This document shows, in pieces, positions 12,221-59,148 of a stretch of DNA of 64,000 bases. The position numbers were made by a program, and so were the translations under genes. The stretch comes from Octopus vulgaris (lineage: Eukaryota), in NCBI GenBank assembly GCA_951406725.2, contig OX597839.1, positions 5,332,001 to 5,396,000 of the forward strand, in the 5' to 3' direction. The notes beneath the pieces are model-generated. The model did no database searches. It saw nothing but the letters and a program-made list of their open reading frames with translations, and was not told the DNA's origin. Position 1 is the first letter of the stretch. Each line of letters begins with the position of its first letter.

Positions 12221-12270
<50 letters not shown>

Positions 12271-12272
<2 letters not shown>

Positions 12273-12524
12273 AACAACTTATAAAATAAGGGCAAAAGAA
12301 AAATTCTAATGTCAAATATGCCGAAAAAAAAATACAAAATTGTCAATAACCATTATAATTTATGCGTTTCGAAACATGCCGATAGACATTTCTAAAAAAT
12401 TTCGTTATTACCGTATTGGTCCCAATTTCGGGGTTAATTCATAAGAATTTTCCCCTCGTCAGCAATAAATACGTAAGACATAAATGAAATACTTACTCAT
12501 ACCCATGGAAAAATATAAAGTTCT

Positions 12525-12528
<4 letters not shown>
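12271..12528 (-). mobile_element. Family H1 hammerhead-bearing element inserted in (TA)n
   Basis: Reverse-complement homolog of 514-748, flanked by (TA)n on both sides. Confidence 0.75.
12408..12468 (-). ncRNA. Type I hammerhead ribozyme motif (H1), intact
   Basis: Reverse complement ttattg-CTGACGA-GGGG-aaaattcttatgaattaa-CCCC-GAAA-TTGG-ga-CCAA-TA-cggtaa; all three stems pair. Confidence 0.85.
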
Positions 12529-12581
<53 letters not shown>

Positions 12582-26967: not shown

Positions 26968-27520
26968 GGATAAAATCTACACCACCACCGCTCGACAACC
27001 GCTGTTGGCGTATTTACGTCCCCGTAATTTTGAGAAGTACCAGGCTTTAAAAGATAAGTCCTGTGGTTGATTTGTTCGACTGAAACCCTCCCGGGTAGTG
27101 CCCCAGCATGGCCGCAGTCAAAAATGACTGAAACAGATTTAAGATAAAATATCAATTCCACTGACGTAAGTAAGTTGATGTAGAAGATTTTCAAAACTCG
27201 ATTAGGATAAACGCTGGAGCATTGCCAGAGTACTCTCCCTTGATAATGTACTCTCCTTTTGAAGATAGTCAATAAACATTTTGGCATTCCAAACAACTGA
27301 GGCCATCTTTGTCCCTGCGAATGAAAAGGCATTCGCCTTATTTGGAGCAGCTGAAGAGGGGTGTTTCCAAAGAATGGATTTTGTCTTTGTTTCTGGCTCA
27401 AAGTGATGGCTTAGGAAATACTTAAAGGGTATTTCCTACTGGCTTAGGAAATACTCAAAGAAGCCAACTGGATATCCCAGAAATAATGTCAGATTTTCTC
27501 GCAGTATAACCAACCTAACC

Positions 27521-33931: not shown

Positions 33932-34998
33932 TCTATGTTTGACTTTTGCTTTATGTCTGTACAAGTTGGCTCCAAGTCTCACCCAGAGACCTCAAGAGAC
34001 AACAGGTTGGAAGTTCTGTGCCATATATTTGGGGGTTTTTTTTTGGGGGGGGGGGTGTTGTACTAGTGAATGTCTAATACATAAAAAAAAAATTTTTAAA
34101 TAAATAAATAAAAAAATAAAAAGAAATTAAATAAAAAAAAATTTGTTTTAAACCTTGGGATTACATAGAGAGTATTTTGCGTAGGATATGAGCAGTTCCC
34201 ATGAGCACTATCTTTTGAATTTCTGCCATTTTGGGGTTTCCTGGTATCTGAGTTAGGTAGCAATCAGTCCCTTTCGCTATCATTCCCAGGACACCTATGA
34301 CAACAGGTATTGTTTTAGTCTTCAGCTTCCACATTTTGCTGATCTTTATATTTCAAGATCTTTATATTTGCTCAGTTTTTGGTAGGTCTTGACAGATACG
34401 TTTATATCGATTGGGACAGTCATATCAATGAGGAGGCATGTTCTTTGTCTGAAGTCTTTCAATATGATGTCTGGCCTATTTGCATCTATCTTCCTGTCAG
34501 TTTTAATGGTGAAGTTCCAGAGGAGTGAGATGTGGTCATTTTCAAGCACTGGAGGTGGATTGTGTCCCCACCAGTTTTTTTCATGGGGCAAATCCAGGTT
34601 TTTGCAAATTACCCAGTGAATATATTGTGCAGCTCTATCATGCCTGTTGAGGTACTCTGTAGGCGCTAGAAGACTGCATTTGGAGACAACATGATCAATG
34701 GTTTCATTTTGTTGTCGGCATACACGACATGTTGGGCTACTGCCGTTCTTTAATATGTTGGCCTGGTAGTTTCTTGTTGGTAGGCATTGATCTTGAACTG
34801 CTATGATAAACCCCTCTGCTTCAGATTTTAAGCCATATGCCATTAGCCATCGATGGGTCAGGGCTTTGTCAATATCTGCATTATTCGCTCTCTTTGGGTA
34901 TTTGCCATAGAGAGGTTTTTCTTGCCATTTATTATTCAGAATAACTAAGGCCGCAGTTTTGGCACGGGTTTTCATGCGCCTAGCTTTTTCTGTGCTTG

Positions 34999-35000
<2 letters not shown>
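33932..35000 (-). mobile_element. R4/Dong-clade non-LTR retrotransposon, 5'-truncated, inserted in (TAA)n
   Basis: CCHC knuckle CRVC…ETIDHVVSKC, RHD motif and restriction-like endonuclease RPDII…IDMTVP…KLSKY; (TAA)n on both flanks, the known Dong target. Confidence 0.92.
34161..34999 (-). pseudogene. Dong-like ORF C-terminal fragment (zinc knuckle plus RLE endonuclease), in-frame stop at 34346-34348
   Basis: The frame continues past the stop: ISKMWKLKTKTIPVVIGVLGMIAKG…ILRKILSM*; RT domain absent. Confidence 0.88.
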
Positions 35001-39174: not shown

Positions 39175-39507
39175 CACACGTACTCTCACAGATATATATA
39201 TGTATATGCATGTATGTATGTATGAAGATAAAAATACATACATAGAGGCATACATATATACATATACAAAGTGCATGACATCTTATGTACGTGAGTGAAT
39301 GAATGTATATATATATATATGATATGATATACGTATGTATATGTATGTATATGATTGTACGGATGTATATGTGTATGCACATATTCATCTATGCATATAT
39401 ATACATCCATGCAGACAGATGTGCACACGCATACACACACATGAAGACGTGTTAGATTCCATGTCTGTATGAATTTATGTTTTCGCTGATGAGTATATAT
39501 ATACATA

Positions 39508-43802: not shown

Positions 43803-43954
43803 TATTGTATGTATGTATATATGTATGAATGTATGTATGTATGTATGTATGCATGCATGTAGGGAGAGTTTATGAAAAAACAACAAAAGACGAAGACAGG
43901 TGGTGTACAAAACAAACAGATGTATTAGTATAACGCTCAGGAATAGAAAAAAGG

Positions 43955-43990
43955 CTTTTACGTTTCGAGCCTACGCTCTTCTACAGAAAG
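43955..43990 (-). ncRNA. Minimal hammerhead-like motif with non-canonical core (H4), in element 43860-44035
   Basis: Reverse complement cttt-CTGTAGAA-GAGC-gtag-GCTC-GAAA-CG-TA-aaag. Confidence 0.55.
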
Positions 43991-44778
43991 GAACACAGAA
44001 AAAAAAACAAGGAGAGAAACAAGGAGAGAAAGTATTATGTATATAGCCACGGATATTGAGCCCTTGTAAATTATGATACAGCTATTGGTGCCAACAGAAC
44101 AGAGGTAATCTGTGGAATGGTCTGCCGTCTAGTTGGAGGATTAAAATGACATAGCAATAGTCTTAATACTACGGCACCTGTTTGTTGTGCCAGCCAGCGC
44201 AACTGGACATTATGCAATAAAATATGTAAATCTTTGCTGGAACTCAAAAGTCATATAAGGGACTCACATTGCATTATCAATGACTCATGTCAATGACTCT
44301 TTCTAGCCATGACTTTGATCGTGTATGGGTAAACAACCACTATGTATGCATGCATGCATGTACACCGTTTCGTTTCCTTATATAAATACGATATATTTTT
44401 AGTATTTCCTTTATCTTAGATGAGTTCTACTCTCAATGTGTAAATTATTTTCGTTTCATCACATCATCCTATTTATCTATATATCTATAAATATTGTGTG
44501 CATGTGTGTGTATATAAAGAGAGAAATAGAGAGAGACAGAGAGAAAAACAAAGTGAAAAAGAGATAGATGAAGCAAGAGATTGATAGATAGATTGAGAGA
44601 GAGAGAGGGAGAGTACACAGACTCATTACGTTTGTTTCTTTACAGAAGCTTAATATATTTCGCCTGTCCCTTTCATTAGTTCACATGACAATTCAATTAA
44701 CTTGTCAATAGCAAAAACAAAACGAAAAAATACACAATAATACTAAAAATAATGTCAATAATAATAATAATGGTGATG

Positions 44779-46206: not shown

Positions 46207-47095
46207 CGTGGTCTGATCAATAAATATCCGGACTGTTGCCATAGTAACGAATCTAAAGCACGTAGAGTAAAGCCGCTTGGCAAAGATTGACCGTGGAATC
46301 TGTTGTGCACTCGCACTGGGATTTACCGTTCTAGGCCACTTCTACTGTTTACAGCAATGCTTGGAATGAAGGTATGTAGCATGTGATCGTAGCATTGACT
46401 ATGACAAGAGAAAGTTTTAATGGTGATACCTGCTTAGAGGCCTACGCAAAGTTGCAGAAAGTGTATGGAGAGGAGTGTATGAGCCGCACACAATTGTACG
46501 TGTGTTTCAAAAGTTTTCCTGATATCCGAAAAAATGTCGATATTAATCAATGTTCTGAGACAACCGCAACCAGCAGTACTGAGAAAAACATCGCAGATGT
46601 GCTTGCAGCTGTGAGGGGAAATCGTCGAATCACCATCCGTGAGTTATCAGGAGGTGTTGCAGATTAGTTGGGTTCAGTTCAGTCCATTATAACTAAAGAT
46701 TTGGGTATGAGACGCATGTCTGCTAAGTTTGTGCCAAGACTCCTTTCAGCTGAGCAAAAAGACACTCGAGTTCCAGGTGTACAAGATTGTGTCCAGATCG
46801 ATGAAAATACTTTTTAAAAACTTTGCGTAGGTCTCTGAGCCGGTATCTCGAAGCTTTTGGCAAAGTTTGATGAAGATTTCCTGCTCAACATTCTCTGTCA
46901 TGGTCAATGCGACGATCACACGCTACACACCTTCCTTCCAAGCACTGCCGTGAATAGCAGAAGAGGGATAGAGCGTTAAAACTTAGTGCGCATGCACAGC
47001 AGAGTTCAAGATCAATCTATGCCAAGTGACTTCACTCTGCATGCCTTAGCTTTGTTACTATGGCTACAGTCCATATACTTATTGATCAGACCTCA
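46207..47095 (+). mobile_element. Mariner deletion derivative with ~210-bp terminal inverted repeats and TA TSD
   Basis: TA|cgtggtctgatcaataaatat … atacttattgatcagacctca|TA; internal HTH remnant AYAKLQKVYGEECMSR…NRRITIRELS and DLGMRRMSAKFVPRLLS. Confidence 0.9.
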
Positions 47096-58717: not shown

Positions 58718-59148
58718 GGGATCCTTTCGGTTTGAACGGCAGTTTTTCTAGCGGTGTCATATGAAATTGTCACTCACAATTATGACCCTAGTATCGATCT
58801 ATAGCATTTCAATCTGTTTTAGGGTTAGGGTTAGAGTTAGGGTTAGGGATGGGGGGAAGGGTATCTTTTTTTCTTCAGAAATGTAAATAAACCCAATCTG
58901 TTTCTTAAACGAGGGACATATTCATACGGCACAGAATGTTTTCACCTCAATAGACGTTAGTGATTGGTTGAAATTGCAAAAATTGAAGAAAAAAAACAGC
59001 AAATATCTTACAAACTATAGAATTTTCTCAATAAAGCCAAGAGAAAAAGATGTTTTATAAACACATTCTACCAGTATTCGAAGTTTAAAAGTGTTTAGTT
59101 ACGTGGAAATTATTTTTAAAAAACTGCCGGTCAAACCGAAAAGATCCC
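58718..59148 (+). mobile_element. MITE with ~29-bp TIR, internal (TTAGGG)n and 6-bp TSD aatttt
   Basis: GGGATC…GATCCC termini; TSD at 58712-58717 and 59149-59154. Confidence 0.9.

Follow-up and report, generated by a model that had tools for sequence, protein, structure and literature searches.

Non-LTR retrozymes have been described in several animals, with units of 220-245 nt in Acropora, 350-390 nt in Mytilus and 330/350 nt in axolotl (PMC7229834; bioRxiv 10.64898/2026.07.22.740005), and the published families often have no more than 7 units (bioRxiv 10.64898/2026.07.22.740005). RNA circles and Penelope-driven insertion have been proposed for retrozymes by Cervera and de la Pena (PMC7229834) and likewise by Li et al. 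(bioRxiv 10.64898/2026.07.22.740005). Hammerhead ribozymes have also been reported in the pseudo-LTRs of Penelope-like elements (Cervera and de la Pena 2014, PMC4209133), and a palindromic helix III that favors dimers is a known pattern of metazoan type I motifs (PMC4209133, PMC7229834). The anole Poseidon element PAc (Frangieh et al. 2024) was found to use two internal start sites and to extend both strands in vitro, and its ribozyme cleavage was protein-assisted and dispensable for insertion (PMC11167929).

Here, a 64-kb window of Octopus vulgaris DNA (the whole stretch of 64,000 nucleotides that was analyzed) has been examined. We consider it probable that the insertion at 12263-12513 is a truncated, passively decaying copy of a ~470-nt non-coding non-LTR retrozyme, which was mobilized by a Penelope-like element and whose hammerhead was likely selected in the source RNAs. 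This kind of element is already known from the animal retrozymes; no publication on the ~470-nt family was found in the literature, article supplements and repeat databases aside.

The octopus family resembles metazoan non-LTR retrozymes in that the genome also holds Penelope-like elements and that its unit is short, AT-rich and non-coding, is repeated head-to-tail, carries a single type I hammerhead and has a self-paired predicted circle. Unlike those retrozymes, it has a unit of ~470 nt, a stem II with an internal loop and a 5-bp extension, and no arrays above about two units in the sample. Its strict targeting of (TA)n and its pair of fixed 3' ends are not among the features given for metazoan retrozymes in the accessible parts of those reports. 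Type I topology, a palindromic stem III suited to dimers, scattered single copies, opposite-strand pairs 100-700 bp apart and families with compensatory changes are shared with the pseudo-LTR hammerheads of Penelope-like elements, from which the octopus repeat differs by its canonical 6-bp and 4-bp helices, its 4-bp stem III and a unit without an ORF (PMC4209133). The minimal Penelope-type features are absent, as helix I has 6 bp, no bulged base lies between A9 and 10.1 and helix III has 4 bp. Internal initiation of reverse transcription at two sites, with both target strands cut and extended, recalls PAc (PMC11167929) and other Penelope-like insertions (Craig et al. 2021, PMC8557442), and so do the AT-rich or (TA)n targets, the 5' truncation, the inverted 5' copies and the 'tail'. 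Unlike PAc, the octopus template is non-coding and its sites lie ~90 nt apart instead of 30-40; moreover, opposite octopus arms nearly always use different sites, whereas the accessible PAc data give no start-site difference between strands (PMC11167929).

The hammerhead motif at 12408-12468

In agreement with the sequence-only reading of this DNA, a type I hammerhead motif occupies 12408-12468 on the minus strand; it is the single match to a type I descriptor in the whole window. Stem I (6 bp) is formed by 12468-12463 and 12413-12408. The core strand C3-A9 (CUGACGA, 12462-12456, with position 7 at 12458) leads into stem II (4 bp), whose strands GGGG (12455-12452) and CCCC (12433-12430) flank an 18-nt loop II insert (12451-12434) consisting of a 2x2 A internal loop, a 5-bp helix and a 4-nt loop; in the extended stem II as a whole (12430-12455), the terminal A at 12434 is present in all 202 copies for which the whole ribozyme was compared. 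The GAAA core (12429-12426) is followed by stem III (UUGG-GA-CCAA, 12425-12416), U16.1 (12415) and A17 (12414), and the region from A15.1 to U16.1 (12415-12426) is self-complementary, with a predicted weak hairpin and a strong duplex between two ribozymes. By hammerhead numbering, cleavage is predicted after AUA at the 12414/12413 bond (12413-12414), where the earlier reading had also placed it. The core (C3 U4 G5 A6 N7 G8 A9, G12 A13 A14 A15.1 and U16.1 H17) is intact in this copy, and each fixed core position is retained in 192-202 of the 202 copies. An Rfam search of 12340-12525 returned no hammerhead family at E<=10, which may be due to the 18-nt loop II insert. A tertiary contact between stem I and loop II, involving an unpaired U1.7 and a terminal loop A, has been described (PMC11875169); as the unpaired U1.7 (12407) is found in 198/202 copies and the terminal loop II A in 202/202, the same pair is a candidate contact in this extended-loop family.

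The claim that all helices are paired is correct in that pairing is complete, but two of the stem I pairs are adjacent U.G pairs next to the predicted cut and the innermost G-C of stem III would enclose a 2-nt loop, which is impossible in a hairpin. One of the U.G pairs arises by a private C-to-U change at stem I position 2.2 (12464, in a CpG), found in only 11/202 copies; 174/202 have C-G there.

The window contains a second ribozyme copy at 552-612 on the plus strand. It belongs to the GGAG/CUCU subfamily, lacks U1.7 and has a C/U mismatch in stem I, and its insertion aligns with that of the first copy over 244 bp at 90% identity. Core and stem III are the same in both copies and stem II is GGAG/CUCU in one and GGGG/CCCC in the other, as had been noticed. 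Of the compensatory changes proposed from this comparison, that at pair 10.3/11.3 is truly two-sided (A-U vs G-C) and that at 10.1/11.1 is one-sided (G.U vs G-C). The two copies alone do not prove selection, because their difference is one inherited event, and since the 10.3/11.3 alternatives occur in hundreds of copies, the stem II difference is an inherited subfamily marker and no peculiarity of the 12408-12468 copy.

The 12408-12468 motif had further been regarded as the best candidate for an active monomeric ribozyme. It is the better of the two copies within the 64-kb window only: an intact core with all stems paired was found in 116/202 copies, 60 of which exceed it in Watson-Crick pairs, and it carries seven rare letters within the element, including the C-to-U at 2.2. 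It is thus an ordinary family copy, truncated and slightly decayed. That it is nevertheless an efficient monomeric ribozyme appears doubtful to us. The predicted share of the full hammerhead fold in 12380-12500 is 0.0003 (rank 49/73, median 0.0008), a value that ranks copies and says nothing on inactivity, as folding models ignore tertiary contacts; stem III has a computed free energy of +0.5 kcal/mol in hairpin form and of -12.3 in a self-duplex, which leaves the monomeric part of the claim unsupported; the two neighboring U.G pairs adjoin the cut, and among four triplets in the ELVd hammerhead, AUA gave the slowest cleavage (PMC1636495). On the other side, the helix sizes are canonical, G10.1-C11.1, U1.7 and the terminal loop II A are all present, and conservation of the latter two makes monomer activity possible. 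The centroid fold of 12380-12500, from models that omit tertiary contacts, has all three stems formed, stem III (3 bp plus A15.1-U16.1) exceeds the 1-2 bp usual in metazoan motifs (PMC4209133), and single motifs from coral and mussel cleave at ~0.8 and 0.1 per min (PMC7229834). When natural dimers were folded, a double hammerhead was cheaper than two monomers in 4/6 cases and than either single monomer in 2/6.

Family size and covariation

In the 2.8-Gb genome, an exact 32-place pattern over stem II had 675 matches and a divergent form had 227 more, giving at least 902 copies, whereas reversed-pattern controls had 0 matches genome-wide. A position-ordered sample comprised 95 loci out of 100 listed stem II pattern matches, in which pair 10.3/11.3 was A-U in 47, G-C in 40, G.U in 2, A/C in 2 and other in 4. 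The 202 whole-ribozyme copies combine the best BLAST hits to three queries with this sample and are not a random draw. In addition, the unit with the same variant letters was seen in contigs (of uncertain kind) of four other organisms, and a unit end joined to a unit start in contigs of two other organisms.

Subfamilies differ on both sides at six pairs, which are spread over all three stems. Pair 2.1/1.1 and a distal stem I pair are G-C or A-U depending on the group, pair 10.3/11.3 and one stem II extension pair are A-U or G-C, pair 10.1/11.1 passes from G-C via G.U to A-U, and pair 15.3/16.3 from U-A via U.G to C-G; the distal stem I and stem II extension pairs were picked after the data had been seen. 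Core variation between groups is confined to N7 (C, A or G), and core invariance by itself is not significant (P about 0.1). In an alignment of 100 of the 202 copies, 96.6% of cells were paired and 103 cells had a two-sided change, where shuffles gave 33 +/- 6 and slid controls 4-37; the number of pairs with a two-sided change in these 100 copies was not above shuffles (133 of 500), and related rows, as these copies are, can beat shuffles without structure. When events were counted instead, 14 group-level changes fell on 21 pairs and broke none of them, an outcome that random placement of 14 changes gave in 839/200,000 trials (0.4%) with transitions only and in 7/200,000 (0.004%) with 70% transitions. 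In a FastTree tree of the non-ribozyme columns, there appear to be ~3 flips of pair 10.3/11.3, with small G.U clusters nearby, a count that is given without branch support and that template switching could mimic. RNAalifold, applied to six group majorities, recovered stem II, stem IIb and the distal pairs and placed stems I and III out of hammerhead register; it is not counted in support of the latter two.

It is conceivable that such a pattern arose without selection, if the stems had stayed paired owing to the letters of subfamily founders, to decay at CpG sites and to correction on the hairpin as template during reverse transcription. The C11.1-to-U change does lie in a CpG, the events are few and were inherited by hundreds of copies, and related rows would outdo shuffles even without structure. 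However, six separate pairs in three stems are involved, some with partners 50-70 nt apart, N7 varies and all other core positions do not, and a long helix flanking the ribozyme has several broken pairs in the same groups; we therefore regard this explanation as very improbable. The sequence comparisons support selection of the type I hammerhead fold in the source elements, as had been suggested from the two copies alone, and it is likely that the hammerhead in the source RNAs was kept working by selection.

Predicted defects are also shared among copies. G17 is found in 10/202 copies and A10.1/C11.1 in 8/202; L147, L163, L177 and L178 share G17 (predicted non-cleaving), and both units of L147 have A10.1/C11.1, G17 and a stem I mismatch. 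These G17 copies and the shared damage within L147 indicate that dead ribozymes were probably also copied.

The repeating unit and its insertion ends

The whole insertion at 12263-12513 (minus strand) is a single 5'-truncated arm with ~250 bp of the 470-nt unit and one ribozyme; its 3' end lies at fixed site 1 and runs into (TA)n, and a second (TA)n tract is found at ~12530-12579. The second copy belongs to a two-armed insertion (435-834), in which an inverted arm (435-510) reaches site 1 and a forward arm (514-834) reaches site 2, both ending in (TA)n. The unit closes on itself head-to-tail with a length of 456-477 nt, and two ribozymes 456-477 nt apart were found within one arm in 15 cases. 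Arms map entirely to the unit and end in (TA)n, with no LTR/PBS/PPT organization, and no long ORF common to the unit was present among the reading frames listed. Identity is 94.5% between repeated parts of one arm (53 arms) and 94.4% between opposite arms of one insertion (median of 61), compared with 90.1% for random pairs.

Among 307 arms, 207 end in three 10-nt bins followed by TA repeats. The two fixed 3' end sites are AGT|TA-like, are separated by ~90 nt and lead into (TA)n. Of the single arms, 56 end at site 1, 51 at site 2 and 22 elsewhere, whereas two-armed insertions comprise 56 with site 1 and site 2, 2 with site 1 twice, 0 with site 2 twice and 38 with at least one end elsewhere, so that one of each site is used in 56/58 two-armed insertions ending at fixed sites. 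The 5' ends of 310 arms are spread with no peak at the predicted cut, and 0/30 copies chosen by the sequence just 3' of the cut start there; a linear cleaved monomer was thus rejected as the template of reverse transcription. The copied RNA would rather have been uncut or re-ligated. Read-through of the cut site and the stable period favor a circle, whereas the short arms and mixed dimers count against a simple circle.

The two ribozymes of one arm are alike at five diagnostic letters in 9/15 arms (0.12 by chance) and differ in 6/15, two of these at four of the five letters. L029, L223 and L008 are head-to-tail dimers that mix ribozymes of different subfamilies, in both orders, which suggests that the template was switched between RNAs; mixed dimers (6/15) could not arise from two readings of a single circle unless such switching took place. 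When folded as a circle, one natural unit had z -6.1 and a second natural unit, with deletions, z -0.7. A long helix is also predicted on both sides of the ribozyme (unit ~62-110 with 330-385, in L076 numbering), which would bring the ends of the cut monomer together; its changes are mostly one-sided and some pairs are broken.

A non-autonomous Penelope derivative, that is, an orphan pseudo-LTR copied from linear, uncut read-through RNA with a hammerhead that is slow, protein-assisted or dispensable and with no circle involved, could give similar insertions. The longest of the 307 arms (from top-scoring or first-listed copies) measures 968 bp and arrays beyond about two units were not seen among them, a limit that such a linear template would explain, and both the mixed-haplotype dimers and the shared, probably dead ribozymes fit it. 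The anole element offers a precedent, since its ribozyme mutants still insert in vitro, its main template is unprocessed RNA and its cleavage requires protein (PMC11167929), and only 1/9 Xenopus retrozyme dimers was cleaved (bioRxiv 10.64898/2026.07.22.740005). Such a template, however, should shorten the family in every round, but several subfamilies have kept a precise period of 456-477 nt; in addition, repeated stem compensation implies that cleavage mattered for propagation, and no parent ORF was found in the unit. This explanation is accordingly considered unlikely, and a retrozyme mobilized by a Penelope-like element is preferred.

Under the retrozyme explanation, an insertion long enough to hold two ribozymes would be transcribed, and the ribozymes would cut after AUA, probably aided by palindromic stem III pairing in a double hammerhead. 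The unit would then likely be ligated into a circle. A reverse transcriptase/GIY-YIG protein, presumably Penelope-like, would nick a (TA)n tract, and copying of the RNA, across the ribozyme junction, would begin at two fixed internal sites, each serving one DNA strand. The products would be 5'-truncated single arms, such as 12263-12513, or two outward-facing arms, such as 435-834.

Penelope-like elements as candidate helpers

A young Penelope-like element is present in many near-identical copies (150 scored out of 17,635 candidates) with a period of ~4.5 kb. Its ORF matches RVT_1 above cut-off (E 1.4e-7) and GIY-YIG weakly, below cut-off, its protein has a CX4CXXC linker such as has been described for Neptune/Nematis, its pseudo-LTR carries a minimal hammerhead-like motif, and its 3' ends are GT|TA in (TA)n. 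Intact ORFs with 1000-1200 codons between stops were found at L185 (G000:C6:117390500-117403000), L188, L189 and L190, where the 4.5-kb copies stand in tandem with 99.7% identity; judged from these sequences, the family is probably still active.

The retrozyme unit showed no similarity to the pseudo-LTR of this element, the one Penelope-like family compared (best local match E 0.26), and in this comparison the ribozyme repeat does not flank an RT/GIY-YIG ORF in the same unit. The possibility that the unit is the pseudo-LTR of the young family was rejected, as they share no sequence and the unit repeats with itself. The young copies examined have one fixed 3' end and no inverted arms, which, together with the lack of shared sequence, indicates that the main helper may be an older or sister family.

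At L091:4769-6713 (G000:C4:64212768-64214712), an inverted site-2 retrozyme arm directly adjoins a 5'-truncated young Penelope-like copy, with no spacer between them, at one (TA)n site. This is possibly a two-template insertion, or else the result of a deletion after two separate insertions. It is the only direct fusion. A TA tract separates the retrozyme and the Penelope piece in L092, and most other 5' junctions examined abut TA-type repeats; Penelope ORF pieces near the L071, L075 and L083 copies are at least partly explained by common (TA)n targeting.

A more far-reaching interpretation, which we put forward only tentatively, is that the copies of this family record past rolling-circle insertion of a retrozyme into the genome. 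Both strands of a (TA)n break would be primed by a dimeric Penelope-like protein at different fixed sites of an RNA circle made by the ribozyme, a second, different RNA possibly serving for the other strand (as L091 and the mixed dimers may suggest), and this cycle at the RNA level would have driven repeated compensatory evolution of the hammerhead, with 10.3/11.3 flipping ~3 times via propagated G.U.

Other repeats in the window

No host gene was found in the 64-kb window. Its 34 non-repetitive frames gave only weak fragments of mariner transposase and LINE zinc finger, below Pfam cut-offs (27205-27435, 34349-34999 and 46380-46664), and a Penelope ORF is absent from it. An Rfam search of the whole window returned, among 150 of 381 matches, only microsatellite-driven miRNA-like and similar ones, all below gathering score.

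At 43860-44000 on the minus strand, a Penelope-like pseudo-LTR has its 3' end, which carries a minimal hammerhead-like motif and ends in a microsatellite. The core of this motif is CUGU-GA (U6), with the same U6 in 31 copies of the young family, whereas relatives have CCGACGA or CUGACGA. A separate, abundant SINE-like repeat at 860-1000 on the minus strand ends in (TA)n and has CUGA-GA and GAAA-like words in an order outside the type I descriptor. Isolated CUGA-GA words at 39486 and 23870, both on the plus strand and one running straight into (TA)n, may belong to truncated ribozyme repeats from other families. Short telomere-like runs of CCCTAA occur in three related repeats at 58878, 59746 and 60467 on the minus strand.

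Biological significance

The single copy at 12408-12468, truncated and slightly decayed, is of little weight among the 900 or more in the family. The family itself is of modest importance: its copies form a natural set of mutants of a type I hammerhead whose stem II is extended. Its insertion ends predict that copying starts at two sites, each serving one strand, that the target is (TA)n and that the ribozyme junction is read through. These predictions bear on the copying of retrozyme circles into DNA by Penelope-like proteins, which the accessible literature presents as proposed and not as demonstrated.
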